Under the pieces are notes generated by a model. That model had not been told where the DNA came from. It did not search any database and saw only the letters and a program-made list of their open reading frames with translations. From Haliotis rufescens (lineage: Eukaryota), in assembly GCF_023055435.1 (NCBI RefSeq), contig NW_025964383.1:10416001-10480000 (forward strand): a stretch of DNA of 64,000 bases, written 5' to 3'. Made by a program: the position numbers and the translations under genes. This document shows positions 1,699 to 42,689 of the stretch, piece after piece; within the stretch, counting starts at the first letter, position 1, and each line of letters opens with the position of its first letter.

Positions 1699-2812
1699 GA
1701 AAAAGACAACACACACATCTGCTTGGCTGTTCAGCGGATTAAGCTGCTGCATTAACACATGCCTTGGCACTATGTTGGTAAGAACGTTTAGGTACATCTA
1801 ATATGTAACTGTACAATAATTGGCATGCATATATACTTTTTTAAATGGACTGTTTTAAGAAAACAATATGCGAACTTTATCAATCAGTCCAATAAACAGC
1901 CGTAAGAAACACCTCACTGATTATTTATCATCATCTACTCCCACGAAAATTTTCAATAGCAATATAAGCTACAAATCACTCCATTGCTCCCTTCAGCATT
2001 TTTGTCTTTGATTTTAAAATATTTATTTCTTTTCCCGACACCAGCCTTATCTGAACAGCAGCAAGGGAAGAGTTGTATGCTCCGAACACGGGCCAGTAGT
2101 CATCTGCCTGTTTTTCTGTGTCTAATGTCACAAGTTCAGCTATGGTGTTGAGGTCAAATATAGTGAGGGTGTTCCTGGTACCGTCAAACAGAAGCCCATG
2201 TCGCAGTGTGTCAGATGTTCCTGGACTGGTCGACAAAACGTTTTCGTAGCATCTCGAAAAAGACAACACACACATCTGCTTGGCTGTTCAGCGGATTAAG
2301 CTGCTGCATTAACACATGCCTTGGCACTATGTTGGTAAGAACGTTCAGGTACATCTAATATGTAACTGTACAATAATTGGCATGCATATATACTTTTTTA
2401 AATGGACTGTTTTAAGAAAACAATATGCGAACTTTATCAATCAGTCCAATAAACAGCCGTAAGAAACACCTCACTGATTATTTATCATCATCTACTCCCA
2501 CGAAAATTTTCAATAGCAATATTAGCTACAAATCACTCCATTGCTCCCTTCAGCATTTTTGTCTTTGATTTTAAAATATTTATTTCTTTTCCCGACACCA
2601 GCCTTATCTGAACAGCAGCAAGGGAAGAGTTGTATGCTCCGAACACGGGCCAGTAGTCATCTGCCTGTTTTTCTGTGTCTAATGTCACAAGTTCAGCTAT
2701 GGTGTTGAGGTCAAATATAGTGAGGGTGTTCCTGGTACCGTCAAACAGAAGCCCATGTCGCAGTGTGTCAGATGTTCCTGGACTGGTCGACAAAACGTTT
2801 TCGTAGCATCTC
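1699..2812 (-). repeat. Two tandem 557-bp units (1699-2255, 2256-2812), each the B-type 3' half of the SPRY exon plus B 3' flank
   Basis: Identical junction catctc|gaaaaagacaac at 1698/1699 and 2255/2256. The unit matches B1 ~10507-11075. Confidence 0.9.
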
Positions 2813-5755
2813 ATCTTCTGGCCATTGCTCCAGATCTTTGCACAGCCTCCTTTGTGTGTAGAGCAGTGTGCGATGACGAGACACATGGATCCTTTCTGCC
2901 CGCTCATGCAGTAGCTGTTGTCCAGGCATGCTCCCCTAGCCACACCTATTTCCATAAGTAGGCCATGTTGCATTTCAGAGGCCACGTTGAAGTCTGACTC
3001 CACCTCCCAATAGCTGACTTTGTCTTTGGGTAGAGGTGTAATAGCCGTTGTCCCAACATACTGACCTAGTTTCCTTTCTTGGGAGACTTTACTATTAACC
3101 AGGAACCCTTTGTTGTTGACATGGACCTTATTGTTGTTGATTCTTTCCACGTCAAACGACAAAGCAGGATCTGCAATGTACCAACACCTTGTTTCTGCAT
3201 ATCATTTGGTATCATTATTTTTTTCTAAATTGTAATCTCTGAATTCTTTACGCTCGCACTATTTACTGGGTCTGTGGCTAGTCTGGTGGTTAAAGCGTTC
3301 ATTCGTCACGCCGAAGACCCGGGATCGATCCCCACATGGGTACAATGTGTGAAGCCCATTTCTAATGTCCCCCGCCGTGATATTGCTGGAATATTCCCAC
3401 TCACTGTAATATGTTCTAATCATAATTAATGTTTCTACGCTGACATTAGTGTTTCCGTGTCTGCATAAAGATACGTTCAGTGTAATAAAAAAGATTCCAG
3501 TGCATGTTTTGTTTCATTCAGTTTCCCCATGCGTATTATTTCGTTTTATTACAGTTATTGATTTGTCTGTAATGCACAGTCTTTAAACTATTAGCTTGGC
3601 GTCACGCTTTTGATGTTGCAGCTGATTCTGAACCAGATTTCACAGAGGCAGATTCTCGTATTTTCTACACCAAATTCAAAATAATTACAAACATACTGAA
3701 ACAACATTTACATATTGTCAGTGATGACAAACACCAAGATATGTGGTAACTAAGAGTGTGTGAGTCCGGCAATATTACGGTGGGGACACAAGAAATAAGC
3801 TTCAGCCATTTGCGTAAAGAGCGAACGCTTTAACCACTATCATCTTCAAAGAAAGCTGCTAACATACAATATAAATGTTTTCAACAAACCCATATACATG
3901 CTATGTAATCGGGATAAATGTTTCTTCACTGAACGTAATTTACCTGAATTAAAACTCAGTCTATATTAGATAAATTATCAAGGATACTCATGAAACCGGA
4001 AAAGGTCAAATAAACATACAATGCATGCATGCAGATCAAATTGTTCATACATTGTGGGATTCCTCTCTGGAGAAACCCTGGTAAACCTGATGTTTTTTTA
4101 CATAAACCTTATTCGTTTTAATCCTTTCAAAATCAAATGCCGAATTCGGACTTTAGATATAGACTAGGAAAATCTAAGGACAATATTTGAGTCAAGCAGA
4201 TTATCATGCATGTTATTTTAAAATTGTTAATTATTAAAGCTATTGCCTTCATTATTATGACATATTAACAACATTGAATTCAGAACAAACAAGTTGTTGA
4301 TGTGTTTTCCACGTTGCTCCGTTTGCTTCAAATGTGCGAAAAAAAGAAACACGTTTGGTGTGGAATGATTTCACTTACACAATCTCTCTTCTACTGGCTC
4401 AAGGTGACGTTTCTCGGCTGAAGAAGAAGTTAATGCAAATATGATCCAAGCAAACGTGTAAAGGTATGTTCATTTCGTTTGGCATTATACAGTTTCAATG
4501 TTACCATAGCACAACAATTTTATCGTTTTAGACAATGATATTTCAATCCTATCTCTGCTGTTGTTCGGGCGTCACATAAGTTACAAATTTGATTTGACAT
4601 TAAATCTCTTTTTAATTGTTTAAAAATACCATTATCAAAAATTTCTTTCATTTATTTCTAACCTGAGCCCTTCTTGTCGTTTTCCTTGTCTTGGCTGTGA
4701 ATGTCAGACTCAGTTGTTCCAATGGATGAAATAACTTCTTCAAGATGTTCCATCTGGTCCTTCGAGAAGGACAGTTGCATTGCTTCAACCTCAGCCCCCG
4801 CAACATCCTCAGCTAAACAGTTTTCCGTCTGTATTTTCATGCATTTCTCCAGCATCAGGATATCACTGGGAGGCCCATATTTCAGCAGTTTTTCAGTAAA
4901 GTCATGTGTGTCCTCACATTTACGTAGAACGTTTTGCAATCCCAAGTTAATCCTTGAAATGTCCACCAGGTTAAGTCTATGCTTGGAGTCTAATTCTTCT
5001 TGTAGTTCTGCTTCACGTTTGGTGAGGCACACCTTTAGATGATGGAATCTATTTGACAGGAGTGTCTTTGAGTCGTTGTAACTTGCTTCCGAATTCTCTC
5101 GCGTTGTTTTGGTTTCTGTCATCGCTTTCCGGATTTCTTGTAACTTTTCTTCTAATTTAGCTTTGCGTTGTTTCGTCGTGCTTTTCCCCACATTAGCTGC
5201 ATCTTCCAGTTCCTGCACAACACAATGCTTATGTTCTGACCGTACGCATTTAGAACAAATGAGAGTCTCACAAGTTTCATCGTAAAGGTCAAGAAAGTAC
5301 TCATCGTGATCAGTACAGAGGGCACTGGGGGGCGTCAGTCCACCTGCTTTCATATCTCCCACTGGCAACATCTGATGGGTCCTGGACGTCTTAACTTGGT
5401 TGTGAGCAGATTCACATGACCTACAAAACATGGCCTGGCAGTTCCTACACCATGACCTGGCAGTCTTTGCTGAATTACCGTGGTCTTTATTGGTGCATGT
5501 GACCTCTGATGGCTTCAATTTGAGGGTTGAGGATAGTATATCCATTTCAGTGACATGGTCCTTTGGCAAAACGATCGTTCTTTTGTCGAAAGAATATCTA
5601 CAAAATGAACACTGTACCGTTTCGCATTCAGCTCCGATGCAATCAGCACACACAGGATGTAAACAAGGGAGAAGGTATGGCTCGGCTCCTTTGTATCTGA
5701 ATGGCGTCTCACAAGCACTGCATTGTGGGATTCTAACTGTGATTTTGGTGGCCAT
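2533..5755 (-). CDS. TRIM-like E3 ligase A1 (RING-Bbox1-Bbox2-coiled coil-B30.2/SPRY-like), ~589 aa, with a B-type C-terminal tail
   Basis: Predicted coding exons are 5755-4663, 4417-4379 and 3170-2533, joined by GT-AG phase-1 introns (1770 nt in total). Motifs: C3HC4 RING CSAC..PCLHPVCADC..CSFC; B-boxes WCRNCQAMFCRSCESAH and CTDH..CETLICSKCVRSEH; SPRY-like YWEV..EIGVA..WPVFG. A probable 5' UTR exon has its donor at 5912. Confidence 0.85.
3270..3405 (+). mobile_element. tRNA(Asp-like)-derived SINE, family 1 (paralog at 32030-32162)
   Basis: A-box-like tagtctggtgg, cgtcacgccgaagacccggg..tcgat head, and body gatattgctggaatatt. Confidence 0.85.
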
Positions 5756-6619
5756 GATGTTGGAAACCTTATAAACGAAAATTAGGTATATGTACAAAAT
5801 CAGTATGTCTAAGATTATAACAGGTAATTAAAATAATGTACCTTCAGGACGTCATTTAACCTGTATGGAGATTATTATTCATATATAATTTTTAAGGCGA
5901 TATTCTCCTTACCAGTATAATTCAGCTTCGATGTTCGTATTGCGATGGTTGGATGATGTTGTTCAAAGGCTTTCGCTTAGAAATTCAGACATTAGACTCC
6001 GTTAGCTACCGTCGTGGAGACACCATCCACAGGACGTGTATGACTGGGGGCGTTTGTAAACTTCGAACCACAAAATGACAGCCGACACTCTGATAAGCTG
6101 TAGTTGATGGCCGTGTGTCACATGATAGGTGACACACTCTGACCGACTAAGCTGATATGCAGTGCAAAAGTGTTTTTTTTATCTACACTAAATGTAAAGC
6201 TAAGGACTGTAACATGGTCATTATTATCGAACTTAATTTAATCATCTCTCTAAATATATCTCCTGTACCCTCATTCAGTCACGAGTACCGTACTGACTAC
6301 CCAACTATATATGTATACTTAATGAAGGCTGTACTTGTCAAAATCTGACACATTTTAGGTTTTAATGGAGACATTGCAGTGGTTTTAGATACCATGAAAA
6401 ATATTATTTCTTAACCTGCAAAACAACTGGATATTTGTGATCAAATCGTTTACAACGGGTGGAACTTGTAGATGTCCACTTGCGGTGTGTGTGTTAATGT
6501 CGTGTAACTCTGCATCCAGGTTTACTACTACATACAACATTAAGTATAGCTAAGTACAGATATTATTAAGGTCATCATTGGCGCTGCTCCTCCAAAATAG
6601 GTTGTACCTACGCTCTTCC

Positions 6620-7575
6620 CACTTTCCAAGTTTAACCCGACTGTTTCAGCACTTTCCATCCCCCAAGTATAACCCTATTGCTTCAACTTTCTTTCCACTT
6701 CCAAGGTTTAACCTGACTGCTTCATCATTTTACACTCCACAAGTATAACCCGACTGCTTCCACTATTTACACTTCCTAAGTAGACCCGATTGCCGTCACT
6801 CTTTCCACGTCCTAAGTATAACCCGACTGCTTCCACTGTTAACACTTCCTACGTAGATCCGATTGCTTCCACTTTTTCGACGTCCTAAGTATAACCCGAC
6901 TGCTTCCACTATTTACACTTCCTAAGTAGATCCGATTGCCGTCACTCTTTCCACGTCCTAAGTATAACCCGAATGCTTCCTCTATTTATTTTTCCTAAGC
7001 AGATCCGATTGCTTTCACTTTTTCCACATCCTAACTATAACCCGACTGCTTCCACTATTATACTTCCTAAGTAGATCCGATTACCTTCACTTTTTCCCGT
7101 CCCCAGTACAATCCGACTGCTACCACTATTTAAAGTCCATAAGTAGATCCGATTGTTTTCACTTTTTCCACGTCCTAAGTATAACCGGGCTGCTTCCACT
7201 ATTTACGCTTCCTAAGTAGATCCGATTGCTTCCACTTTTTCCACGTCCTAAGTATAACCCGACTGCCTCCACTATTTAGGCTTGCTAAGTAGATCCGATT
7301 TCCTTCACTTTTTACCGTCCTAAGTATAACCCGACTGCTTCCACTATTTAAACTTCCTAAGCAGATCCGATTGCTTTCACTTTTTCCATGTCCTAAGTAT
7401 AACCCGACTGCTTCCACTATTATACTTCCTAAGTAGATCCGATTACCTTCACCTTTTCCCGTCCCCAGTATAATCCGACTGATACCACTATTTAAAGTCC
7501 ATAAGTAGATCCGATTGTTTTCACTTTTTCCACGTCCTAAGTATAACCCGACTGCTTCCACTATTTACACTTTCC
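6620..7575 (+). repeat. Tandem array of alternating 36/37-bp subunits (~73-bp higher-order unit)
   Basis: cctaagtataacccgactgcttccactatttacactt alternates with cctaagtagatccgattgcttccactttttccacgt. Confidence 0.9.
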
Positions 7576-8744
7576 ACTCCCGCTCTGTACACTGCTTCCT
7601 CAGTGCTTTAACCCTTGGCAGTGCTTCCCTACTTTCCACCTCCCGAAGTGCTTCCGCTCTTTGTACTGCTCACAGCCTTACCTGAGTCCTGCCACTCACT
7701 GGTTCGATATGCCAGGTGGTTGATGTCGCACTTTAATATGCGTCAACCAATTACACGAATTATTCCACATTTATACTTCTCGTCAATTCGAATCCTTGTA
7801 TGCCCTGATTATGTTTCTGGGTTTTTCAACACTATTACAGTGTTTGTGGATTTCACCAAAGTGGTAAACGTTTTAGACCTACCCAACAAGCTGACAAAAT
7901 TACACCAAGTTCTTTCAAACGTTAGCTTGACCTCAAATTACCTTTACTCCTATCACTGCCCCAGATTTTAGTATGTGTATAAGTGTTAAAAAAAACTTTT
8001 CAAAATATATTAAATTGTCAGAGTGCTTCAAAACCTCTGCCGTAGAATACCAGAATGAATCCGTCCTCCCCATTATACTCTTCCTTATGGGTTTACGTTA
8101 AAGAAAACATCTGTAATCTGCACCATCTTGTGCTCTGGTCTCGCATTAAGCTCTGACATAACTGATATACTGTTCAACGCGGCGTTAAAAACAACTTACT
8201 CAATCACACACGTTGTGATTCAACACTTTACACTTCCTGGACAGTTGTACCTTATATGTCTTTAGAGATAAGCCCTCAATCATCATGCTGTGCATATTGA
8301 CTCATGTGCACTGCACGTCGCTGCAAGTCGTGAGCTCTATTATACAGACCTGTGCTCATCCATATATGGGCCAACTGCTTGAGTAAAGACTCAACACTGC
8401 ATTATCTTTTTATCTTGATTTGAATGGTGTCACGAGAGAGTGATTGGACTGTGCGATGTCTGTAATGTGTGTAGATTATGTAAGTGGCTTGTTGTGTGCC
8501 AGGAGTGCGTGGTGTACAACAGAAAGTGACCTGATTATCAGGATAGCCTATGAAAATGTTCACGCAGCTTCGGTCGATAAGGCTGTTGTGAAATTTTCCC
8601 AATATGTTTTAGTAAATATCTGCATAGTTCTGGTAAATTTGCACATTCACTGTAACACATTATTTTCTAGCATACATATTTATTACACACACACGGGTTG
8701 CTGAAGGCCAATTCTAACCCGGATCTTCACAGTATATACAAATA

Positions 8745-8781
8745 CATTATATATATATACATTATATATATACACATACCT

Positions 8782-8824
<43 letters not shown>

Positions 8825-8905
8825 TAGATATAGATAATATAGACATATGTATGTAGATAGAAAGATAGATATAGATATATAGATATGTAGATAGATAGAT
8901 ATATA
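8745..8905 (+). repeat. (TA)n/(TAGA)n microsatellite
   Basis: Direct reading. The paralogous site is the N gap at 37648-37800. Confidence 0.95.
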
Positions 8906-9627
8906 CATCGAATAAGTATGACAACTACGATTTCTCTCACAATTGAACTATGTGTGGTATATGTGTAAATGATATGACACGAAGTTATAGATAGTGTTTT
9001 GGCAGTCGTCATTGTACGTACATGTATATGTCAAATCACCATCATTATTGCAGAAAGTCATATGTAGTATGAATTATTGTGCAAACACTTCTGGGCCAGG
9101 TATTCTAATGATTATTCTGCGTATGTTCATAGTCGTTTGTATTGTGAATAACTGTGTATTTATAGCTATTCTGAGTGTGCTCTCATGCTTGATTGTATGT
9201 TGGATAGTTCATGGAAGATCAACAGTTTTGAGTATGTGTATTCACGCTGAATGTAAGTTGAATGGTAATGTGTAGCGGTGTGTATGTATTGGAGTATATA
9301 ATGTCCGTATATCAGATGACGACCGAGTCCAGTAAACGTCTCGGGTGAGAGGAGGTGAGGTGAACTGGGGTTTAACTTCGCGTTCATGATTTTTTTCCTT
9401 ACATAGCGTATGTGTGTATGCTCACTGATATACCATGCCTCCGTTTGACATGTCTACCCCACTCAAACACGGTATACTGACTCCGAGCCGACTTGCCCTT
9501 GTTTTAGCCCCTTAATGACGAGCGCCAGGCAGGGTAACATCAAGTACCTTTGTTATGACGCGTCCGGGGATCTAACCAACGACATTCCGTTCCCGGCCAG
9601 ACGCTCTTTCCAATCGATCACGGAGGC

Positions 9628-9670
9628 GGTGAGGTGAGGTGAGGTGAGGTGAGGTGAGGTGAGGTGAGGT
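9628..9670 (+). repeat. (GAGGT)n microsatellite (paralog at 38578-38625)
   Basis: Direct reading. It sits at the tail end of an adjacent SINE. Confidence 0.95.
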
Positions 9671-10795
9671 GCAAAATTTCACTTGGATACCCAACTTATT
9701 AATTGTCTCCGGGCAGACCAATCCTTGTTTTATCCCCTTCCTGCCTAGCGCCTGGCAAATATCATCTTTTAGCTCCTTTTGGTATGACGCGACCGGGGAT
9801 CGAACCCCGGATCTTCCGCTTTCTGTGAAGGCGCCCTATCCACTCGACCAGGGAGGCGGTCATAGTCATGAAGGAGTTTTAGTGATTTGTGCGTAATCTG
9901 ATAGAGTATCTGTGTATGTATGAGCGGCAGGATGAGAGTGGGTTCAAATGAAACTCAATTGGGATGATTAAATCATTAAGATTAGTTTCAAAAGTATTAT
10001 GAGTTCATATCTGGCTAGTTTTTGCTCCCTGTTTGGAGAATAGCTGACAAAGAAGCGACAATACCCTTTCCAAAGTCATAAGAAGCGCTTTTTATTATTC
10101 TTTGTATCATATACATGCAGCGAAACAATATAAACATATCCTTGCACATAACCTTGAACATATATTTATCTTTAACCATCAACATAACGCAGGTACAAAT
10201 AATGTATTTTACACCTTGTATACACACACACACACCAATTTTGTCATTTTAACTTCATATCTATAGTTTAACCACAGAGAGAAATCATGACAGTTTGTAC
10301 AGTCATTATGATGAAGATGGGGAAAATTTTGATAAATGTGTAGATAAGAAAACTGTATATGTGGTGTACATTACTTACATATACGGTATGTTTATCATGT
10401 ATCTTGTGGCTTGGAATGAACTTTTAGATTTTCACAGTTACGAATTGAATTAACAATGGCGAAACGGGTAAATAGTAAAATAATACACAAGTACAATTCT
10501 TGGCATGAAACAGACAACACACGCATCTGCTTGGCTGTTCAGCAGATTAAGCTGCTGCATTAACACATGCCTTGGCAATATGTTGGTAAGAACGTTTAGG
10601 TACATCTAATATATAACTGTACAATAATTGGTATGCATATACACTTTTTTAAATGGACTGTGTTAAGAAAACAATATGCGAATGTAGATAGTGATGTTAT
10701 CAATCAGTAAAAAAAACAGTCGTAAGAAACACCTCACTGATTATTTATCATCATCTACTCCCACGAAAATGTTCAATAGCAATATAAGCTACAAA

Positions 10796-13739
10796 TCACT
10801 CCATTGCTCCCTTCAGCATTTTTGTCTTTGATTTTAAAATATTTATTTCTTTTCCCGACACCAGCTTCATCTGAACAGCAGCAAGGGAAGAGTTGTATGC
10901 TCCGAACACGGGCCAGTAGTCATCTGCCTGTTCTTCTGTGTCCAGTGTCACAAGTTCAGCTATGGTGTTGAGGTCAAATATAGTGAGGGTGTTCCTGGTA
11001 CCGTCAAACAGAAGCCCATGTCGCAGTGTGTCAGATGTTCCTGGACTGGTCGACAAAACGTTTTCGTAGCATCTCATCTTCTGGCCATTGCTCCAGATCT
11101 TTGCACAGACTCCTTTGTGTGTAGAGCAGTGTGCGATGGCGAGACACATCGATCCTTTCTGCCCGCTCATGCAGTAGCTGTTGTCCAGGCATGCTCCCCT
11201 AGCCACACCTATTTCCATAAGTAGGCCATGTTGTTGCATTTCAGAGGCCACGTTGAAGTCTGACTCAACCTCCCAATAGCTGACTTTGTCTTTGGGTAGA
11301 GGTGTAATAGCCGTTGTCCCAACATACTGACCTACTTTCCTTTCTTGGGAGACTTTACTATTGACCAGGAACCCTTTGTTGTTGACATGGACCTTATTGC
11401 TGTTGATTCTTTCCACGTCAAACGACAAAGCAGGATCTGCAATGTACCAACACATTGTTTCAGTAGAATACCTTGATTCTGTAAATCATTGAGTATCATT
11501 ATTGTTTTCTCAACTGTAGTCTCTTTTCTTTACATTTATATGATTTATTAAGCATTCTCTACTGACATGAAGGTAATATTGTGATAACCATTGTTGATCA
11601 TCTGCGCATCTACTTACATGACAAAACATGATTGCCAGTGATCAACTCTTCTCCGTTGTCCTCTTCGTTTTCTTCGTTGTGTTCTCTTTCCTTTTCTTCT
11701 TCGGTGTCAGGATCCATGTCAAGGGGCTCCGTTTCTGCATCATGAAAATGTTTAATGTTATGTAAGCCAATTCAGAGAACGTTTTGTGTTTTTTATTTAA
11801 CTTTGTCATATTATTACATAACAGTTATTTGTTTTTCTTTAATGCACAATTCATAATGTTGAAATTATCCTTACCCAAATCAGCACGAGGTTTGAAAAAC
11901 AAAAGTTCAATAAATCAGTTCAGATGTGTCAGTACCTGATATCATGTCTGAAAGTTTACTCTCGTCCACTGTTGAAAACATTGGAAGATAGTTTCCCTGT
12001 GCTTGGGGATCTGAAACATAGTGCATGTCAATGATGCGAAAGCACACACACACACACACACATTTATATATTTATTATGTTTTCATTTCAAGGTAAATCT
12101 TAAAGGATGTCATCATCGTTGCTTTCATAAAATATTATCAGCTTTCACGTGTCTAGGTTCTCCTCCTGTAAGCGACAGCTGTTGACATAAATCACAAATG
12201 TTCTCAACAACCCATAAACATGATTGCGGATTGTTCATGACTGGAACAAAAACTAAATGTTGTGTTTGCAACTCGATGTTAAAGCATTTCTCAACCATAT
12301 GACATGAATCAGAAAGGTAATACTGACAACCGTTACCTATGAAAATGCAGAATGTACAAGTATTTAAACATCCTAAAAATAGCAATGCTGAGGGATTTGT
12401 AAAATACCCTGATGTATTTAGTTCTATAACACACACAACCATCTTGATGTAATGCTCTATTGATGAAACTTTTGCAACATAATATGTTCCAGTGCTCCTG
12501 TGAGAGTTCACGACCAAATCACAATGAATATTATTATTCAATGCTCTTTCAGAAAAAAACAAAACATATGTAATCTTTTTGGGACGGCTTTCATTGGAAT
12601 TCAACAAAAATTCAAGCCATACCTTTCTCAGAAGTTTCAGTATCACTGTTTGGTCCCTCAAAATTGGCATACAAATTCATAAAGCTGCCATCATCCCCCT
12701 CCTTGGTCTCAATGTCGCACACGGTTTGTAAAACATTTTCAAATGATTGTATTTTCTCCCTCGAAAATGTTACATGAACTGGTACAACTTCAAACATCTC
12801 GGCCTCCTCAGATAAAGCCATTTCTGTCCTGAACTTCACATACTTCCTCAGCATCAGGATGTCGCTCGTGTTTCCATGCTCCAGCAGTTTCCCTGTGTAA
12901 TCATGGGTGTTCTTGCATAACCTGACAATCCGCCTGAGATTGTTACTGACCCTCGCAGCCTCATCCATCTCAGACAGGTGTCTGAACTCCAAGGTTTTCC
13001 TCAATTCCGCTTCTCGTTTTGTAATCAAGTCACGGAGGCTGTTAAATCTTTGTGACAACAAATCCTTCAAATCGTTGTGCCTATCCTTCATCGTCTCCTG
13101 TTTTGTGTTTGATTCGTCGATCATATCCTTGAAATGTTGTAACTTGGCTGCCAATTTACTCTTATCTTCTATTGTGTCTTCCTCCACGGCACCAGCAGCC
13201 TCGTCTAACTCCTCAGTCTTACAATGCTTATGATTTGACCGAGCACATTTTGAACAAATGATAATCTCACACGTTTCATCGTAAAGATCCAGAGCATACG
13301 ATTCATGGTCTGGACAAAGCGACTTCTGTGAACGCACATCCGCTGGCTTCATGTCCTTCAGAGACACCATCCCATGGGTGCTGGAACTCCTCACCTGATT
13401 GTGTGCAGCTTGACACGATTGACAGAAGAAGGACTCGCAATCCTTGCACCAGGATACTGCATCCAGGCTATGATCTTTGTTGGTGCATTTGATCTCCGAT
13501 GGCTTGTGTTTTAGGGTAGTGGCAAGGGTTTCTACTTGAGTGACGGTATCATTTAGGAAAATGAATTGCTCTTTGTCAAATGACTCTCTGCATAACAGGC
13601 ATGTTATTGTTTCACGTTGAACGCTAATGCACCCAGCACAGGCTGCATGTAAACACGGAAGAAGGTACGGATCTATCCCTTTGTACTTGTATGGCTTCTT
13701 ACAAACACAACAATGCGGACACTGAGCTTTAGACGCCAT
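10796..13739 (-). CDS. TRIM-like E3 ligase B1 (RING-Bbox1-Bbox2-coiled coil-acidic linker-B30.2/SPRY-like), ~649 aa
   Basis: Predicted exons are 13739-12623, 12010-11936, 11734-11618 and 11436-10796, all GT-AG phase 1 (1950 nt in total). RING: CCVC..PCLHAACAGC..CLLC. A probable 5' UTR exon has its donor at 13938. Confidence 0.85.
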
Positions 13740-14579
13740 GATATATGATCCTATACGAACCACTGGAACGACACAGAAAAGACAACACATTTATATAAAG
13801 TGAATACATATAAGCTAAACTATATCAACCTACATTTAAGACGTTATCGATTATTACATTACTGCTTACTCTGTCAATAGACGTTATTTCGTATATAGAA
13901 AATCCAGACATTGTATCACCCAGGTGTTTAAAACTTACCTGGATGGGACTCACGGTTTAGAAACATGTACAAACGTACCCCTCCTGTTCTCGGTAATGTC
14001 TAATATGAATATAGATGTCTTGCGTTGCCTGTTGGATAAACCTGTCTCGACTGAGACCCACCCTTCTCGCAAGAAATAACTGACCCGAATCAGGTAGTTG
14101 GAGATGCAGCGTGTGTGTCAGACTGTGCCCTTCACTGGCGCGTTGACAAAAGATATGTCACCCGCTCTGTCGACAGATGATACTGCACAAGGTCGCGCAG
14201 GTTATTTTTGACTGTGGCGTCTGTCCAGGTGGCAACACTACACACTGATTACACCAAGAGAATAACCTAGGACGTGGTCTATTTCATTTAAGAGTAACTA
14301 TGCATATTTTGTGCAGGTTTATATGCGCCCCGCTACGGATTGTGGGCAGGCCTATACACTTCATATTAACATACAACTCTACATAACTTTGCAACAACTG
14401 CACTCAGTGTGTATGGCTTCAGGGTAGTAGATACTAGTACATGCCGTGGACGTATCACAAGGGTCTCCTAAACAGTAATGTGATTGTTGTATCAGCCTAC
14501 GAACATGTAGATAATTATGATGTTGAGTGACAGGTGAAACTCAATTGTTTGCGAGTCTGACGCGATCTCAACTGGACTT

Positions 14580-17085
14580 GTTAGCCTTCGAGGAGTACAC
14601 ACATCTGATAGCCTTCAAAGAGGACACACATCTGGTAGCCTTCGGTGAAACCACAATTTGATAGCCTTCGGTGAGGTTTGTTGTTTAACGCCGCATTCAG
14701 CAATATTCCAGCTACATGATGGCTGTCTGTAAATGATCGAGTCTGGACCAGACAATCCAGTGATTAATATCATGATCATCGATCTACGCAGTTGGGATAC
14801 GATGACATGCATCAACCACGCGATCCCGTTAGTCGCCTCTCAAGACAAGCACAGTCGTCTTTTACGGCACGCACGGGTTGCTGAAGACCTATTCTACCCC
14901 GGATCTCCACGGGTCCCTTCGGTGTGGACACACGTGTGAAACCCTTCGGAAGGGATACACATCTGGTAGCCTTTGCTGAGAACACACATCCGAAAACCTT
15001 CAATGAGAGCACATATTCGATAGATTTCGGTGAGGTCTCAAATCTGATAGCCTACGGTGAGATAACACATCTGGTATCCTTCGGGGAAAACTGACATCTG
15101 GTAGCCTTCGGTGAGGAAACATATCTGATAGCCTTCGCTGAGAACACATATCTGGTAGCCTTCGCTGAGAACACACAACCGAAAACCTTCAGTGAGAGCC
15201 CATATTAGAAAGACTTCGGTGAGGTCACACATCTGGTAGCATTCGCTGAGAACACACATCTGGCATCCTCCGATGAAAACACACATCTGGTATCCTTTAA
15301 TGAGAACACACATCTGGTAGCCTTCGCTGAGAACACACATCTGGTAGCCTTCACTGAGAACACACGTCTGGTAGCCTTCGATGAAAACACGATCTGATAG
15401 CCTTTGGTGAGGTTTGTTGTTTAATGCCGCACTCAGCAATATTCCAGCTATATGATGGCTGTCTGTAAATGATCGAGTCTGGACCAGATATCCCAGTGAT
15501 TAATATCATGATCAACGACCTACGCAGTTGGGATACGATGACATGCATCAACAAAGTTCGCGAGCCTGACTACCCGATCCCGTTAGTCGCCTCTCAGGAC
15601 AAGCACAGTCGTCTTTTACGGCACGCACGGGTTGCTGAAGACCTATTCTACTCCGGATCTCCACGGGTCCCTTCGGTGTTGACACACGTGTGAAAGCCTT
15701 CGGAAGGGATACACATCTGGTAGCCTTCGCTGAGAACACACATCCGAAAACCTTCAATGAGAGCACATTTTCGATAGACTTCGGTGAGTTATCAGATGTG
15801 ATAGCCTTCAGTGAGATAACACATCTGGTATCCTTCGGGGAAAACACACATCTGGTAGCCTTCGGTGAGGACACATATCTGATAGCCTTCGCTGAGAACA
15901 CATATCTGGTAGCCTTCGCTGAGAACACACATACGAAAACCTTCAGTGAGAGCCAATATTAGAAAGACTTCAGTGAGGTCACACATCTGGTAGCCTTTGC
16001 TGAGAACACACATCAGGTATCCTCCAGTGAAAACAAACATCTGGTATCCTCCAATGAGAACACACATCTGGTAGCCTTCGCTGAGAACACACATCTGGTA
16101 GCCTTCACTGAGAACACACATCTGGTAGCCTTCGCTGAGAACACACATCTGGTAGCCTTCGCTGAGAACACACATCTGGTAACCTTCACTGTGAACACAC
16201 ATCTGGTAGCCTTCGCTGAGAACACACATCTGGTAGGCTTCGCTGAGAACACACATCTGATAGCCTTCGGTAGGGACACACATCTAACCGCCTTCGGTTG
16301 AGACACACATCTGGTAGCCTTCACTGAAGACACACATCTGGTAGCCTTCGGTGGGCACACACATCTTATCGCCTTCCGTGGGACACACATCTGATAGCCT
16401 TTGGTAGGGACACAAATCCGAAAACCTTCAATGAGAACACACATTCGATAGACTTCAGTGAGGTCACACATCTGATAGCCTTCGGTTGGACACACATCTG
16501 ATTGCCTTCGATGATAACCCACATCCGAAAACCTCCAGTGAGAGCACACATTCGATAGACTTCAGTGAGGTCACACATCTGATAGCCTTCGGTGAGAACA
16601 CACATCTGGTAGCCTTCGGTAAGGACACACATCTGATAGCCTACGGTGAGATAACACATCTGGTATCCTTCGCTGAGAACACTCAACTGGTATCCTTCGC
16701 TGAGAACACACATCTGATAGCCTTCGGTGAAAACACACATCTGGTAGCCTTCGGTGAATTTACACATCTCATAGCCTTCTTTATCTGATAACCTTAGTTG
16801 ACACACATGCGACACACGTCTGATAGCCTTCGGTGAGGATACACTTCTGATAGCCTTCGGTGATAACACACATCCGAAAACCTCCAGTAAGAGCACACAT
16901 CTGATCGCCTTCAGTGAGAACACACATCTGATAGCTTTCAGTGAGAACACACATACGATAGCTTTCAGTGAGAACACACATCCGATAGCCGTCGGTGTGC
17001 AGACACATCTGATAACATTAGTTGACACACATGCGACAGCATTCGATGAAAATACACGCCTGGTAGCCTTCGGTGAAGACTTCAA
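14580..17085 (+). repeat. 27-bp minisatellite (acacacatctggtagccttcgctgaga)n with two embedded SINEs
   Basis: Direct reading. It generates the repetitive EGYQMCVLS and KATRCVFSA ORFs. Confidence 0.95.
14676..14916 (-). mobile_element. SINE-like family 2 (head gacccgtgaagatccggggtagaatagg); further copies at 15412-15670 and 43592-43852
   Basis: Dispersed ~250-bp repeat that shares the gctggaatattgct..cggcgttaaa 3' end with family 1. Confidence 0.85.
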
Positions 17086-21312: not shown

Positions 21313-21324
21313 TCATTGTCACCA

Positions 21325-24300: not shown

Positions 24301-26874
24301 TACTTTATTTTTGTTCAAATCGAAAAAAACTAAACTTGTAATGGCTCGTTATTTTTTTTGCCTATGGATTTATGAGGTGTGGAACATCGGAGCGTAAGAG
24401 AAATCTGAAAGGTAGGTGGTTCCTGAGTTGTCCATTTCTGCGTGACGTCACAAACCTTTGATCAACAGAGATCTGGGGCATTACATCTCGGCTGCCTTTG
24501 AAGATCTAATCAATCAATAGACTAATTAATTAACATCCAATTCAATCAGCTTGTCATAACTGTTTATTCCTTTTTATCCTTATACTTACTGTACATTTGG
24601 CTTTATTACCCGTGTGTTTTATTACCTTGTGCTATGTGTTATTCTTACTGTACATTTGGCTCCACCCAATTACATGTGTGCTACTTATTATTTGTTACCT
24701 GTTCTCAATGTTAATCTGCTGCTTATCAGAACATGACCTGTGTCTATACCTCTCATTCACTTGGTTGTTGTCACTCCAGAATCAACATCGAAACGTCGCT
24801 ATTTGTAATAAACTAAAAAATGTTCACTTCCACGAAGGGGGACAACGTTAACAAAAGACATGTTCACCTATTTCGAGGAATTTTTTAAAATGTTCAGACG
24901 TCTCGGACAAGTTCACTGCCTTCTTACCTCTCATTGTGCGAGCAAACAATCCCCATGGAGAAGACAATGATATTGTCAGACCCAGCCCTCCACGCGCTAC
25001 TATTGATAAAATGACAGTCTGAACGACTTCGCTCTTAAGTATTTACTTAAGTACTTATGTTAAGTACTTACTGATATGTTTATTGAAAACCCTAAACCCA
25101 ACAACTACTACTAACCCTAATTCAGTTATAACAAAGGCCCAAGGGTTAAATATGTCGGTATAAAGAACCCAAGGGCTAAAGAAATTAACTGAAGCGGCAG
25201 GAAAATGGCGAATGCTTTGGTTGCCAAGGAAGTAGTTCGCGCATAACAGAATATGGCGGAAGGTGTCCGGTATCAAACATTCTTTCCAAAAATAATACAT
25301 AGAATATGACTGAAAATGGTAAGCTTCATGTAAAGCTAGCTATAGTGATGCTGATGTGTATGTCTGAGTTTCTCCCAGCAGACTTGGTTACCTAGATTAC
25401 AAGTAGATCATCTCCGGGAACAGAGGCAACTAGCAACGAGCTCTATAATGATTGGGAATGCTCATGGACACTGAATGGGGTAGCCTTGTGGTTAAAACAT
25501 CGGCAGCTCACGCCATAGATCCGGGTTCGATTCCCTTCATGGGTTCAATGTGTGAAGCACATTTGCTGTTGTACCCCGCAGTGACGGCACTGGAATATTG
25601 CTAAAAGCAGAGTAAAACCACATTCACTCACTCAGGGACACTGACATTATTCGTATTTAACTCAACATTCCTAATAAACTGTATGCAGTGTAATGGAACA
25701 GCTCCAGGTACAGGATACTAAACACTTAGCTTTTCTTTAGCTCGTTACAATATCAATTTATTGTTTCATCATCCAAGAAATAATCAATACTGTACCTACC
25801 TGGGTTACTTTCTGACTGAGGGTCCATGGGTACGTAGTACCCTCCAAAGGAAGAAATCAATTGCTTCAGGTCTGTAAAGTCCTGTCTAGATAGAGTGACT
25901 GCAGCCTCTGTATCTCTCACTTGGGGAAGCTCAGTTGTAATACATTCATTGGTTCTGGATACTACTGTCTTTCTGGCCCTGAAGAGTGCGTCAACACTAG
26001 ACATAGCAGCGAATTTCTGACAATACCCAAGTGCTGTGTCACATTTGGCTTCCTCCATTTCCAACTTGGATAGCCGTGAATTATTCATATCATATACAGC
26101 TCTGAAACTTTGATCCAGTTGTAGAGAAACCCCTTCTTCTCGCTGTTTTAAAGTAGTTCTCAGGTCAGAAAATGTATGCTTTAAGAACTCCTTCCCTTCC
26201 TCCTCTTTCCCCTCTGACATCTTGACAACTTCTAGTACCTTGTCCCTGATGGCTCTGATTGTTTCTATCTTCTTAGAGAGGCCTTTCTGTCCTTCCTCCA
26301 GTACCGTCTCCTTCAGATGTTGACATGCTGTGGCTATGTCATTCACCTTGCAGTCGCTATGATTCTCCTTACATTTGAAACAGATTCTTTGCTCACATGT
26401 TTCGTCATAGAGCTGTAGAGGATGATCAGCATGTTCTGTGCAGTAGACAGTCTTAGGAGTAGGTTCTCCGTCAGAAGACGTCAAGTTTTCCAATGGCACA
26501 ACTGCATGTGACCTTGTTATCTTCATATCCTCATGGCTGGCCTGACAGTGCTCACACAACAAGGCTTCACATTCATCACACCAGGACATGGCTTGGTTGC
26601 CGTCATCTTTGTTGGTACAAAGCACAGCGGAACCATCGTTTTCAGCAGTTTGGTGGAAGATATCTTTGATGACAACGACATCGGGAGGAAAATCCGTTTG
26701 TTCTTTATCAAATGTTTCCTGGCAGATGTCACACGTCAGTGTATCAAGGGTGTCAGTGTCTAGGCATGTCTGACGCACCAAGTGGAGATATGGTAGGAGG
26801 TGTGGATCAGGCCCACCATACTTGTACGAGGTGTGTCACACTCTACACTGGGGTAGCTTCACTGCAGTCGCCAT
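21325..26874 (-). pseudogene. Divergent TRIM-like gene C with an in-frame TGA at codon 13 and a degenerate RING (pseudogene or RING-less TRIM)
   Basis: Exons 26874-25800, 24064-23994, 23710-23653, 23250-23182 and 21980-21325 join in frame (1929 nt) with GT-AG sites. The N-terminus reads MATAVKLPQCRV*HTSYKYGGPDPHLLPYLHLVRQTC. B-boxes, coiled coil and SPRY-like exon (QYWEM..LEVGV..LWPMFG) are intact. A possible 5' UTR exon donor lies at 28652. Confidence 0.75.
25477..25633 (+). mobile_element. SINE family 1, diverged, in an intron of gene C
   Basis: ggggtagccttgtggttaaa..ccgggttcgattccc..cactcactca tail. Confidence 0.8.
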
Positions 26875-29689: not shown

Positions 29690-29765
29690 CTAAGTATCTC
29701 CTACGTAGGACTCAGTATCTTCTACATAGGACTTACTATCTCCTACGTAGGAATTACTATCTATC
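29690..29765. repeat. Three ~21-bp units with palindromic core cctacgtagg
   Basis: tatctcctacgtagga repeated, possibly internal to a MITE. Confidence 0.6.
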
Positions 29766-30357: not shown

Positions 30358-30520
30358 GAGTGAGTGAGTGAGTGAGTATAGTTTTACGCCGCTTTTAGCA
30401 ATATTCCAGCAATATCACGGCGGGGGACACCAGAAATGGGCTTCACACATTGTACCCATGTCGGGAATCGAACCTGGGTATTCGGCTTTAACGCTTTAAC
30501 CAATAGGCTACACGATGGCT
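30358..30520 (-). mobile_element. SINE family 1, present only in duplication copy 2
   Basis: (gagt)n tail and gggaatcgaacc B-box. Absent at ~648 in copy 1 and flanked by tatacatt repeats. Confidence 0.88.
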
Positions 30521-31268: not shown

Positions 31269-34200
31269 CTACTGTCTAGCTACCGAAAAAGCCATGGCTC
31301 TCTCCAAAAACGATTTCTTCCACAGTGGTAATTGTATTTCTTTTCCTGACACCAGCTTAATCTGAACAGCAGCAAGGGAAGAGTTGTATGCTCCAAACAC
31401 GGGCCAGAGGTCATCTGCCTGTTCTTCTGTGTCTAGTGTCACAAGTTCAGCTATGGTGTTGAGGTCAAATATAGTGAGGGTGTTCCTGGTACCGTCAAAC
31501 AGAAGCCCATGTCTCAGTGTGTCAGATGTTCCTGGACTGGTCGACAAAACGTTTTCGTAGCATCTCATCTTCTGGCCATTGCTCCAGATCTTTGCACAGA
31601 CTCCTTTGTGTGTAGAGCAGTGTGAGATGACGAGACACATGGATCCTTTCTGCCCACTCATGCAGTAGCTGTTGTCCAGGCATGCTCCCCTAGCCACACC
31701 TATTTCCATAAGTAGGCCATGTTGTTGCATTTCAGAAGCCACGTTGAAGTCTGACTCCACCTCCCAATAGCTGACTTTGTCTTTGGGTAGAGGAGTAATA
31801 GCCGTTGTCCCAATATACTGACCTAGTTTCCTGTCTTGGGAGACTTTACTATTAACCAGGAACCCTTTGTTGTTGACATGGACCTTATTGTTGTTGATTC
31901 TTTCCACGTCAAACGACAAAGCAGGATCTGCAATGTACCAACACGTTGTTTCTGCATATCATTTGGTATCATTATTTTTTTCTAAATTGTAATCTCTGAA
32001 TTCTTTACGCTCGCACTATTTACTGGGTCTGTGGCTAGTCTGGTGGTTAAAGCGTTCACTCGTCACGCCGAAGACCCGGGTTCGATCCCCACACGGGTAC
32101 AATGTGTGAAGCCTATTTCTAATGTCCCCCGCCGTGATATTGCTGGAATATTCCTACTCACTGTAATATTTTCTAATCATAATTAATGTTTCTACGCTGA
32201 CATTAGTGTTTCCGTGTCTGCATAAAGATACGTTCAGTGTAATAAAAAAATTTCCAGTACATGTTTTGTTTCATTCAGTTTCCAATGCGTATTATTTCGT
32301 TTTATTACAGTTATTGATTTGTCTGTAATGCACAGTCTTTAAACTATTAGCTTGGCGTTACGCTTTTGATGTTGCAGCTGATTCTGAACCAGATTTCACA
32401 GAGGCAGATTCTCGTATTTTCTACACCAAATTCAAAATAATAACTATCATACTGAAACAACATTTACATATTGTCAGTGATGTCAAACACCAAGATATGT
32501 GGTAAATAAGAGTGTGTGAGTCCGGCAATATAACGGTGGGGACACAAGAAATAAGCTTCAGCAATTTTGCGTAACGAGCGAACGCTGTTACCACTATCAT
32601 CTTCAAAGAAAGCTGCTAACATACAATATAAATGTTTTCAACAAACCCATATACATGCTATGTAATCGGGATAAATGATTCTTCACTGAACGGAAATTAC
32701 CTGAATTAAAACTCAATCTACATTAGATAAATTATCAAGGATACTCATGAAACCGGAAAAGGTCAAATAAACATACAATGCATGCATGCAGATCAAATTG
32801 TTTATACATGATTGGATTCCTCTCTGGAGAAACCCTGGTAAACCTGATGTTTTTTTTACATAAACCTTATTCTTTTAATCCTTTCAAAATCAAATGCCGA
32901 ATTCGGACTTTAGATATAGACCAGGAAAATCTAAGGACAATATTTGAGTCAAGCAGATTATCATGCATGTTATTTTAAAATGGTTAATTATTAAAGCTAT
33001 TGCCTTCATTATTATGACATATTAACAACATTGAATTCAGAACAAACAAGTTGTTGATGTGTTTTCCACGTTGCTCCGTTTGCTTTAAATGTGCGAAAAA
33101 ACGAAACACGTTAGGTGTGGAATGATTTCACTTACACAATCTCTCTTCTACTGGCTCAAGGTGACGTTTCTCAGCTGAAGAAGAAGTAAATGCAAATATA
33201 TTCCAAGCAAACGTGTAAAGGTGTGTTCATTTCGTTTGGCATTATACAGTTCCAACGTTATCATAGCACAACAATTTTATCGTTGTAGACAATGATATTT
33301 CAATCCTATCTCTGCTGTTGTTCGGGCGTCACATAAGTTACATATTTGATTTGACATTAAATCTCTTTTTAATTGTTTAAAAATACCATAATCAAAAATT
33401 TATTTCATTTATTTCTAACCTGAGCCCTTCTTGTCGTTTTCCTTGTCTTGGCTGTGAATGTCAGACTTGGTTGTTCCAATGGATGAAATAACTTCTTCAA
33501 GATGTTCCATCTGTTCCTTCGAGAAGGACAGTTGCATGGCTTCAACCTCAGCCCCCGCAACATCCTCAGCTAAACAGTTTTCCGTCTGTATTGTCATGCA
33601 TTTCTCCAGCATCAGGATATCACTGGGAGGCCCATATTTCAGCAGTTTTTCAGTAAAGTCATGTGTGTCCTCACATTTACGTAGAACGTTTTGCAATCCC
33701 AAGTTAATCCTTGAAATGTCCACCAGGTTAAGTCTATGCTTGGAGTCCAATTCTTCTTGTAGTTCTGCTTCACGTTTGGTGAGACACTCCTTTAGATGAT
33801 GGAATCTTTTTGACAGGAGTGTCTTTGAGTCGTTGTAACTTGCTTCCGAATTCTCTCGCGTTGTTTTGGTTTCTGTCATCGCTTTCCGGATTTCTTGTAA
33901 CTTTTCTTCTAATTTAGCTTTGCTTTGTATCGTCGTGCTTTTCCCCACAGTAGCTGCATCTTCCAGTTCCTGCACAACACAATGCTTATGTTCTGACCGT
34001 ACGCATTTAGAACAAATGAGAGTCTCACAAGTTTCATCGTAAAGGTCAAGAAAGTACTCGTCGTGATCAGTACAGAGGGCACTGGGGGGCGTCAGTCCAC
34101 CTGCTTTCATATCTCCCACTGGCAACATCTGATGGGTCCTGGACGTCTTTACTTGGTTGTGAGCAGATTCACATGACCTACAAAACATGGCCTGGCAGTT

Positions 34201-34512
34201 CCTACACCATGACCTGGCAGTCTTTGCTGAATTACCGTGGTCTTTATTGGTGCATGTGACCTCTGATGGCTTCAATTTGAGGGTTGAGGATAGTATATCC
34301 ATTTCAGTGACATGGTCCTTTGGCAAACCGATCGTTCTTTTGTCGAAAGAATATCTGCAGAATGAACACTGTACCGTTTCGCATTCAGCTCTGATGCAAT
34401 CAGCACACACAGGATGTAAACAAGGGAGAAGGTATGGCTCGACTCCTTTGTATCTGAATGGCGTCTCACAAGCACTGCATTGTGGGATTCTAACTGTGAT
34501 TTTGGTGGCCAT
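31269..34512 (-). CDS. TRIM-like E3 ligase A2 (paralog of A1), ~596 aa, A-type tail
   Basis: Exons 34512-33420, 33174-33136 and 31927-31269 (1791 nt), collinear with A1 at an offset of 28757. Confidence 0.88.
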
Positions 34513-39400: not shown

Positions 39401-39731
39401 ATTAACAATGGCGAAACGGGTAAATAGTAAAATAATACACAAGTACAATTCTTCGCACGAAACAGACAACACACACATCTGCTTAAGCTGCTGCATTAAC
39501 ACATGCCTTGGCACTATGTTGGTAAGAACGTTTAGGTACATCTAATATGTAACTGTAAAATAATTGGTATGCATATATACTTTTTTAAATGGACTGTTTT
39601 AAGAAAACAATATGCGAATGTAGATAGTGATGTTATCAATCAGTCAAAGAAACAGTCGTAAGAAACACCTCACTGATTATTTATCATCATCTACTCCCAC
39701 GAAAATGTTCAATAGCAATATAAGCTACAAA

Positions 39732-42689
39732 TCACTCCATTGCTCCCTTCAGCATTTTTGTCTTTGATTTTAAAATATTTATTTCTTTTCCCGACACCAC
39801 CTTCATCTGAACAGCAGCAAGGGAAGAGTTGTATGCTCCGAACACGGGCCAGAGGTCATCTGCCTGTTCTTCTGTGTCCAGTGTCACAAGTTCAGCTATG
39901 GTGTTGAGGTCAAATATAGTGAGGGTGTTCCTTGTACCGTCAAACAGAAGCCCATGTCGCAGTGTGTCAGATGTTCCTGGACTGGTCGACAAAACGTTTT
40001 CGTAGCATCTCATCTTCTGGCCATTGCTCCAGATCTTTGCACAGACTCCTTTGTGTGTAGAGCAGTGTGCGATGGCGAGACACATGGATCCTTTCTGCCC
40101 ACTCATGCAGTAGCTGTTGTCCAGGCATGCTCCCCTAGCCACACCTATTTCCATAAGTAGGCCATGTTGTTGCATTTCAGAGGCCACGTTGAAGTCTGAC
40201 TCAACCTCCCAATAGCTGACTTTGTCTTTGGGTAGAGGTGTAATAGCCGTTGTCCCAACATACTGACCTAGTTTCCTTTCTTGGGAGACTTTACTATTGA
40301 CCAGGAACCCTTTGTTGTTGACATGGACCTTATTGTTGTTGATTCTTTCCACGTCAAACGACAAAGCAGGATCTGCAATGTACCAACACCTTGTTTCTGT
40401 AGAACACCTTGTTTCTGTAGATCATTAAGTATCATTATTGTTTTCTAAACTGTACTCTCTTTTCTTTACATTTATATTATTTATTAATCATTCTCTACTG
40501 ACATGAAGGTAATATTGTGATAACCATTGTTGATCATCTGCGCATCTACTTACATGACAAAGCAGGATTGCCGGTGATCAACTCTTCCCCGTTGTCCTCT
40601 TCGTTTTCTTCGTTGTGTTCTCTTTCCTTTTCTTCTTCGGTGTCCGGATCCATGTCAAGGGGCTCCGTTTCTGCATCATCAAAATGTTTAATGTTATGTA
40701 AGCCAATTCAGAGAACGTTTTGTGTTATTTATTTATCCTTGTCATATTATTACATAACAGTTATTTGTTTTTCTTTAATGCACAATTCATAATGTTGAAA
40801 TTATCTTTACCCAAATCAGCACGAGGTTTGAAAAACAAAAGTTCAATAAATCAGTCCAGATTCTGTCGATGTGTCAGTACCTGATATCAAGTCTGAAAGC
40901 TTACTCTCGTCCACTGTTGAAAACATTGGAAGATAGTTTCCCTGTGCTTGGGGATCTGAAACATAGTGCATGTCAAAAATGCGAAAGCACACACAGACAT
41001 TTATATATGTATTATGTTTTCATTTCAAGGTAAATCTTAAAGGATGTCATCATCGTTGCTTTCATACAATATTATCAGCTTTCACGTGTCTAGGTTCTCC
41101 TCCTGTAAGCGGCAGCTGTTAACATAAATCACAAATGTTCTCAACAACCAATAAACATGATTGCGGATTGTTCATGACTGGAACAAAAACTACATGTTGT
41201 TTTTGCAACTCGATGTTAAAGCATTTCTCTACCATATGACATGAATCGTACAGGTAATACTGACAACTGTTACCTATGAAAATGCAGAATGTACAAGTAT
41301 TGAAACATAGGGACTTTATACGTACTTTAAAAATAGAAATGCTGAGGGATTTATAAATATCCCTGATGTATTTACTTCTATAACACACACAACTATCTTG
41401 ATGTAATGCTCTATTGATGATACTTTTGCAACATGATATGTTCCAGTGTTCCTGTGCAAGTTCACGAACAAATCACGATGAAATATTATTTTTCAATGCT
41501 CTTTCAGAAAAAAACATATGCAATCTTTTTGGGACGGCTTTCAATGGAATTCAAGAAAACTTCAAGCCATACCTTTCTCAGAAGTTTCAGTATCACTGTT
41601 TGGTCCCTCAAAATTGGCATACAAATTCATAAAGCTGCCATCATCCCCCTCCTTGGTCTCAATGTCGCACACGGTTTGTAAAACATTTTCAAGTGATTGT
41701 ATTTTCTCCTTTGAAAATGTTACATGAACTGGTACAATTTCAAACATCTCGGCCTCCTCAGATAAAGCCATTTCTGTCCTGAACTTCACATACTTCCTCA
41801 GCATCAGGATGTCGCTCGTGTTTCCATGCTCCAGCAGTTTCCCTGTGTAATCATGGGTGTTCTTGCATAACCTGACTATCCGTCTTAGCTTGTTACTGAC
41901 CCTCGCAGCCTCATCCATCTCAGACAGGTGTCTGAACTCCAAGGTTTTCCTCAATTCCGCTTCTCGTTTTGTAATCAAGTCACGGATGCTGTTAAATCTT
42001 TGTGACAACAAATCCTTCAAATCGTTGTGCCTTTCCTTCATCGTCTCCTGTTTTGTGTTTGATTCGTCGATCATATCCTTGAAATGTTGTAACTTGGCTG
42101 CCAATTTACTCTTATCTTCTATTGTGTCTTCCTCCACGGCACCAGCAGCCTCGTCTAACTCCTCAGTCTTACAATGCTTATGATTTGACCGAGCACATTT
42201 TGAACAAATGATAATCTCACACGTTTCATCGTAAAGATCCAGAGCATACGATTCATGGTCTGGACAAAGCGACTTCTGTGAACGCACATCCGCTGGCTTC
42301 ATGTCCTTCAGAGACACCATCCCATGGGTGCTGGAACTCCTCACCTGATTGTGTGCAGCTTGACACGATTGACAGAAGAAGGACTCGCAATCCTTGCACC
42401 AGGATACTGCATCCAGGCTATGATCTTTGTTGGTGCATTTGATCTCCGAGGGCTTATGTTTTAGGGTAGTGGCAAGGGTTTCTACTTGAGTGACGGTATC
42501 ATTTAGGAAAATGAATTGCTCTTTGTCAAATGACTCTCTGCATAACAGGCATGTTATTGTTTCACGTTGAACGCTAATGCACCCAGCACAGGCTGCATGT
42601 AAACACGGAAGAAGGTACGGGTCTATCCCTTTGTACTTGTATGGCTTCTTGCAAACACAACAATGCGGACACTGAGCTTTAGACGCCAT
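39732..42689 (-). CDS. TRIM-like E3 ligase B2 (paralog of B1), ~649 aa
   Basis: Exons 42689-41573, 40955-40881, 40670-40554 and 40372-39732 (1950 nt), with the same splice sites as B1. Confidence 0.88.

Follow-up and report, generated by a model that had tools for sequence, protein, structure and literature searches.

Diverged tandem TRIM paralogues of the abalone Haliotis rufescens share a near-identical predicted PRY-SPRY core, probably through repeated gene conversion

The window, the whole 64,000-nucleotide stretch of Haliotis rufescens DNA analysed here, holds an abalone (Haliotis) TRIM cluster with the minus-strand order B2-A2-C-B1-A1. The cluster includes a direct segmental duplication. 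Block 1 (391..15412, no strand assigned) carries A1 and B1, and its counterpart, block 2 (30103-44324), carries A2 and B2. The two blocks match at 92-97% in a self-BLAST, and the dS between their RBCC exons (A1/A2, B1/B2) is 0.034-0.035. Minisatellites of 73 nt (6613-7572, 35604-36492) and 27 nt (14582-17076, 43856-45006) are duplicated with the blocks. A weak match to a DDE_3 transposase (E 0.0015) lies between them at 17611-18258, in a fragment whose flank matches 45829-45968. Spliced at GT-AG introns, each of the four A and B genes reads as an open frame (589, 596, 649, and 649 aa).

The A1 RBCC coding exon (4663..5755, minus strand) encodes a putative RING, two B-boxes, and a putative coiled coil; the exon starts at 5767, after a 5' UTR intron. 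The A1 intron joints 4417/4663 and 5765/5911 are present in two RNA-like sequencing runs. Exon 3 of A1 is a 39-nt linker (4379..4417, minus strand), whose joints are likewise found in RNA-like runs. The homogenised tract of A1 (2581..3194, minus strand) comprises 24-25 nt of intron and the predicted PRY-SPRY core. Its exon starts at 3170, an acceptor implied by database models and by one contig of the RNA-like run X17 (joint 3170/4379), which has 29 letters on its short side and comes from a run that is only presumed to be RNA. In the last intron of A, 43 nt (3719-3763) are missing from two RNA-like runs; the ends are non-canonical, and a deletion allele is the probable cause. A2 consists of an RBCC coding exon (33420..34512), exon 3 (33136-33174), and a terminal exon (31269..31927), all on the minus strand; the terminal exon is divided into the shared core (31335-31927) and an A-specific tail of 21 codons (31269-31334), and the spliced frame is open for 596 aa. 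B1, also on the minus strand, has an RBCC coding exon (12623..13739), two small exons (11936-12010 and 11618-11734), and a terminal exon (10796..11436) in which the core (10844-11436) is followed by the B tail up to the stop. The corresponding parts of B2 on the same strand are 41573..42689, 40881-40955 and 40554-40670, and 39732..40372, with the core at 39780-40372 and the B tail to the stop; this terminal domain was used for folding. Among H. rufescens database proteins, P0006 is identical to the spliced B1 product, the spliced B2 product matches P0001 from its second Met, P0007 matches the A2 end, and the first 566 residues of P0010 match A1. The B genes have further peculiarities. The end of the B2 penultimate exon (40554-40570) repeats 13 nt of the terminal-exon start (40360-40372), which doubles a PALS motif in the protein. 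Immediately before the acceptor of the terminal exon, the B genes have an 18-nt tandem duplication of their own, which is perfect in B2 (40385-40421) and decayed in B1 (11449-11485); an alternative in-frame AG is found 24 nt upstream of the acceptor that is used. Gene C, which an earlier sequence-only reading of this DNA did not mention, lies between the blocks on the minus strand. Its RBCC exon (25801..26874) has an in-frame stop at codon 13 and a degenerate RING, and its terminal SPRY-like exon (21325..21980), 33% identical to the A/B core, appears to belong to a second SPRY pool.

The Pfam B-box PF00643 is matched above cut-off, in two stretches, in A1, B1, and C. The full Cys/His pattern of a RING is visible in A and B, with Pfam RING matches (E 8e-4 to 1.5e-4) below curated cut-offs, and the TRIM_CC coiled-coil matches (E 0.011 in A1, 0.067 in B1) are also below cut-off. 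None of the four terminal domains matched Pfam SPRY or PRY at E<=1. A search of representatives recovered 107 relatives of the terminal domain, and nine of the ten looked up carry Haliotis names. Many of the 30 relatives scanned with Pfam carry a RING or B-box, four carry a CARD, and two match PF00622 (one above cut-off). CARD, with or without B-boxes, is joined to the same SPRY-like domain in P0022, P0025, P0046, and P0056, and weak matches to Schlafen and STAND NTPase come from P0048 and P0062. The relatives form an abalone-expanded SPRY-like family that Pfam SPRY mostly misses. An AlphaFold model of the core, built from a 49-row alignment, is a confident beta sandwich (pLDDT 95.8). The top Foldseek rows are all PRYSPRY domains (MID1, TRIM25, and kin; E 2.9e-9 for MID1, TM 0.6-0.7) at 10-17% identity to the solved domains, and the family profile matches the MID1 PRYSPRY with an E of 5e-10 over positions 18-201. 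Judged by its modelled fold and profile, the terminal domain is a divergent B30.2/PRY-SPRY domain, which agrees with its description as SPRY-like in the sequence-only reading even though Pfam SPRY misses it. The B-boxes and the modelled PRY-SPRY fold, together with a putative RING and coiled coil, are common to these genes and the vertebrate PRY-SPRY TRIMs (MID1/MID2, TRIM25, TRIM21, TRIM5, finTRIMs); the abalone domain differs from theirs in its low identity and in going unmatched by Pfam SPRY. As predicted B30.2 TRIMs, the proteins would be expected to act as ligases and to have a role in immunity.

The RBCC exons of A and B are highly diverged, as had been claimed, with a DNA identity of 60%, a protein identity of 45%, and a dS of 1.64-1.88. 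The cores of their terminal exons, measured from the acceptor to the KEI codons (588-591 nt, ~590 nt), have a DNA identity of 96.8-98.0% and a dS of 0.038-0.077. The contrast between core and RBCC at synonymous sites has a Fisher p of 2.6e-34, and the longest run identical between A and B is 14 nt in the RBCC exons, whereas the core has runs of 110-163 nt. Of 617 columns, 29 vary among the four cores. Between A and B the core dS (0.04-0.08) is near the A1/A2 and B1/B2 values and slightly above that of B1-B2 (0.022); the A-vs-B core dN/dS is ~0.30, and no hypervariable loops were seen. The earlier statement that all four terminal exons are near identical is correct for the core but not for the end of A2, which has its own 21-codon tail and 3' UTR. 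Calculated exon by exon, dS thus marks out a bounded region far more alike than its flanks, silent sites included, as is characteristic of a conversion tract.

The upstream end of this region has three zones. About 25 intronic nt and the core are 97-98% identical, the next 58 intronic nt are 81-83% identical, and beyond them nothing is alignable. The identity had been described as reaching ~20 nt into an intron that is otherwise unalignable; near-identity in fact reaches ~25 nt and an older stratum lies behind it, with the unalignable remainder as described. In A1 this stratum occupies 3195..3254 (minus strand). It is alike at 47-48 of 58 nt, a score reached in 0 of 500 shuffles. A high-copy repeat found by self-BLAST in the last A intron (3275..3395, no strand assigned) lies 21 nt upstream of the older zone; its contigs have depths in the millions, and it is a putative SINE. 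At the 3' end the A/B identity stops abruptly and in frame, where A2 goes on with 21 codons of its own and B with 15. The A2 and B tails are alike at 40 of 73 nt, a score that 493 of 500 shuffles reach, so that they have no significant DNA similarity; as proteins, the A and B tails are in register with those of H. rubra, H. asinina, and gene C. The tail forms the final helix of the predicted structure (residues 201-211), and each of the two tails is joined to the core by 31+ nt in two of four runs. Because the shared tract stops inside the exon and A2 keeps its own last 21 codons, a homologous overwrite is indicated and not a grafted exon.

A1, unlike A2, contains a 557-nt unit twice over, ahead of the displaced A end; each copy joins the last 232 nt of the core to 325 nt of B tail. 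The sequence-only reading overlooked this tandem insertion, and A1 ends like B only through the inserted B-type tail. The first copy of the inserted tail and 3' UTR (2256..2580, minus strand, stop 2533-2535) is 95-96% identical to the B1 and B2 tails; for the tail of the unit in general, identity to the B tails is 95-97%. The second copy of the whole unit (1699..2255, minus strand) has non-homologous junctions at 2256/2255 and 1699/1698. The displaced original 3' end of A1, with 232 nt of core, the A-type tail, and the 3' UTR, follows at 634..1698 (minus strand, stop 1401-1403). Its tail is 93% identical to the A2 tail, and it shares Cys183 with H. cracherodii P0002. The two copies are identical at 555 of 557 positions (tandem region 1467-2812 of the window), and their 232-nt core part is closest to B1 (five differences, against nine to B2 and nine to A2). 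Owing to the inserted tail, A1 stops at 2533 with the C-terminus of B, and the public 715-aa A1 model P0010, spliced around stops, is probably an annotation artefact. Such a structure could have arisen by a template switch from A into B1 between exon nt 493 and 518. Copying would have overrun the end of homology into the 3' UTR of B and rejoined A non-homologously with <=1 nt of microhomology, and the inserted unit would then have been doubled by unequal exchange.

Separate trees of the two parts differ in what they group. In the RBCC tree, the B proteins of rufescens, cracherodii, rubra, and asinina group together (99/99) and A (99/99) falls outside them; at the protein level A is 42-45% identical to any B, and B orthologues are 71-75% identical among themselves. 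The A core is 95-97% identical to rufescens and cracherodii B but only 73-75% to rubra and asinina B, and the core of B itself is 74-77% identical to rubra and asinina B. From these distances, the last common ancestor of the A and B cores is far younger than the rufescens/rubra/asinina splits. The core tree recovers a clade of rufescens plus cracherodii with a support of only 81/78. The best core and RBCC trees differ, although by AU tests on the protein cores an all-B clade (p 0.179) and an A clade (p 0.187) are both acceptable, in a tree that left out out_P0027 and in which P0007, P0010-P0012, and P0005 are not rows. With AU values of 0.18-0.19, which are not decisive, the case rests on distances and not on branch support. 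The B tail aligns with the rubra and asinina tails, while the A tail is in register but distinct, and none of the nine aligned B proteins combines a B RBCC with an A tail. Since the B tail is common to the outgroups and none of these nine B proteins has an A tail, B is the likely donor as judged from sequence. The transfer may have been non-reciprocal or a double crossover. A search for an A orthologue in distant abalones found none (three hits, of which only P0002 is A, then 0 of 74 candidates), which is weak evidence of absence. Direction and start date therefore rest on B-only outgroups, and continuous exchange since duplication is indistinguishable from a later takeover.

Sites within the core bear on whether transfer took place once or repeatedly. 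Among the 29 variable columns, four group A1+A2 vs B1+B2, three (two events) group by block, and no two-state column groups crosswise; gene-type and block-type sites switch three times along the exon. The informative sites number only seven, four of them gene-type, and have little power. The block-type site at exon nt 271 is a CpG and may be a recurrent mutation. At exon nt 518-519 a double substitution (Leu to Tyr) gives DYWP in A1+B1 and DLWP in A2+B2. By comparison with three cracherodii proteins the change is derived, and Y173 is common to rufescens A1 and B1 only. Variants that group by physical block had been pointed out before, and both examples (nt 271 and 518-519) exist, but gene-type sites are more numerous (four vs three). 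In H. cracherodii, where the evidence is predicted proteins and not DNA, the derived residues T42, R118, and M162 each occur in one A protein as well as in B, but in none of the four rufescens copies and none of the six outgroup rows. P0009, an A RBCC with a B tail, shares T42 and R118 with B (P0008), and P0002, an A protein, shares M162 with B. Homogenisation is incomplete: Ser101, found in rufescens A2 and cracherodii P0002, is an A-lineage residue left unconverted, and A1 and A2 have Val99 and Ile189 in common. Taken together, the older intron stratum, the A1/B1 sharing and insertion, and the A/B sharing in cracherodii represent at least three layers of different age. The sequences support transfers later than the block duplication and transfers later than the rufescens/cracherodii split.

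We consider it probable that A and B are old tandem TRIM paralogues whose near-identical predicted PRY-SPRY core comes from repeated non-allelic conversion, mostly with B as the donor, which overwrote the A core, the RBCC exons, introns, and tails having meanwhile become too different to exchange. A and B would have duplicated before the rufescens/rubra/asinina splits, and the core would have kept, or gained, enough homology for repair to be templated between cis paralogues 8 kb apart. Once alike, the core would keep converting. The RBCC exon would not, having lost homology, perhaps with selection against chimeric dimerisation domains. The predicted outcome is two E3 ligase scaffolds that bind the same substrate, and the conversion may be favoured by selection or may simply sustain itself neutrally. 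Of the earlier proposal of ongoing gene conversion confined to the SPRY exon, the conversion itself is supported; that it is ongoing is likely, on few sites and with an A-only clade at p 0.187.

The other ways in which the four cores could have become alike fare differently against these data. Extreme purifying selection since the A/B split, holding the domain constant without any transfer of DNA, is scarcely credible: a dN/dS of ~0.30 would suit it, but the likeness of the protein is matched by that of synonymous sites and of 25 nt of intron, so that the dS already contradicts it, and the same domain has changed by 23-26% between B orthologues of different species. Capture of the last exon of B by an RBCC-only gene A is very unlikely. 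Shuffling of B30.2 has been reported between fish TRIMs and NLRs (PMC2657112), yet the shared stretch stops short of the exon end, and the reading frame continues through an A-specific tail that lines up with the B and C tails, where a graft would leave none. Much the same low probability attaches to an assembly or polishing artefact in which repeat collapse made the exons alike. The A1 tandem junction was not among the 29 contig records listed of >40,000, which speaks neither for nor against it, and the assembly could have set two haplotypes end to end as blocks 1 and 2. Collapse by polishing, which the sequence-only reading named as fatal to its proposal, is nevertheless argued against by the 29 differing columns and by an independent H. 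cracherodii assembly that has A and B proteins with cores 95-97.5% identical. A exon 3 also splices to the core, and both tails join the core, in other runs. Whether the blocks are haplotypes or paralogues, the A/B identity inside each block persists, so that the conversion argument is independent of that choice. The depth of core contigs is about the sum of A-specific and B-specific depths (179.5 vs 107.5 + 69-83 in X1; 69.5 vs 30.6 + 34.5 in X2), but depth is not equal to copy number and is not counted as evidence.

Rather improbable, though less so than these three, is one recent replacement of the A core by B, by conversion or double crossover once in the ancestor of rufescens and cracherodii and before the block duplication, with the later sharing due to ancestral polymorphism and recurrent mutation. 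The larger share of gene-type sites (4/7), the A clade that the AU test does not reject, and the slight excess of the A-B core dS over B1-B2 are what it would predict. It is less easily reconciled with the double substitution at 518-519, the B tail in A1 only, the older 58-nt intron stratum, and the derived cracherodii residues common to A and B. Repeated conversion remains our preferred explanation.

The A/B pair exemplifies, on a small scale and with sharp limits, domain-restricted conversion in a TRIM cluster of an invertebrate, and its layered tract ends and the apparent overrun product in A1 allow the process to be timed. Whole-protein trees and names (TRIM45-like, TRIM33-like) are misleading for these genes. 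In CEACAM pairs, a ligand-binding exon is reportedly kept alike by conversion between neighbours. The same likeness is seen in the textbook pair of receptors SIGLEC11/SIGLEC16, where repeated conversion acts between neighbours with different effector parts; these are membrane receptors with demonstrated co-expression, shared ligands, and opposite signals (PMC5701461). For the A/B pair, splicing was observed for A only. A study of young primate TRIMs concluded that conversion among them was not extensive (PMC3228819). The sequence-only reading presented a conserved recognition domain on diverged scaffolds as a reversal, as if without precedent, but the zebrafish NLR-B30.2 genes have the same contrast. 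There, NACHT dS between groups is 1.5-1.8 and B30.2 dS is ~0.06 (Howe et al., PMC4852459), against 1.6-1.9 and 0.04-0.08 in abalone, with the B30.2 exon exchanged across groups that have old N-terminal modules. The authors also invoke gene conversion and speculate that mixed multimers are disfavoured, so that scaffolds are kept apart while B30.2 flows (PMC4852459). This is the opposite of the heterodimeric or co-acting A/B pair suggested in the sequence-only reading, a suggestion that gains no support from the abalone data. The zebrafish genes have a NACHT-LRR scaffold, number about 400, and have a B30.2 dN/dS of 1.4-1.7, whereas the abalone A/B set has mollusc TRIM scaffolds, four genes, a dN/dS of ~0.3, and a sharp intra-exon boundary. 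The A/B case adds an example from invertebrate TRIM genes to an already described process. A search of open-licence literature, with subscription papers outside its scope, found no publication on these abalone genes.

The SPRY domain of gene C is 82% identical to that of P0021 and 80% to that of the CARD-bearing P0022, whose N-termini are 30% and 21% identical to C. It is only 78% identical to that of P0019, whose RBCC is 92% identical to C, and 63-66% identical to asinina members. This evidence, at the protein level and from a biased sample, suggests that neighbouring C-type genes draw on a second SPRY pool carried by unrelated scaffolds. An all-against-all count of 41 vs 0 of 870 pairs is a lead only, biased because the proteins were found by SPRY similarity among 50% representatives. 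The C-type alignment has a common framework with variable loops, which brings the C pool closer to the zebrafish pattern than A/B with its low dN/dS and absence of hypervariable loops. Together with the C pool, the A/B case suggests that the cross-scaffold SPRY exchange known from fish NLRs arose again in molluscs. A larger scheme, which we hold doubtful, is that abalone independently evolved a modular immune cluster like that of the zebrafish NLRs, in which TRIM and CARD-TRIM scaffolds unrelated to one another draw their SPRY exons from distinct pools: the C pool, with hypervariable loops on a common framework, and an A/B pool that selection keeps uniform so that two ligases read one target. 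In the last third of the window, long low-complexity arrays (50660-53500 and 57900-59650) yield spurious ORFs.
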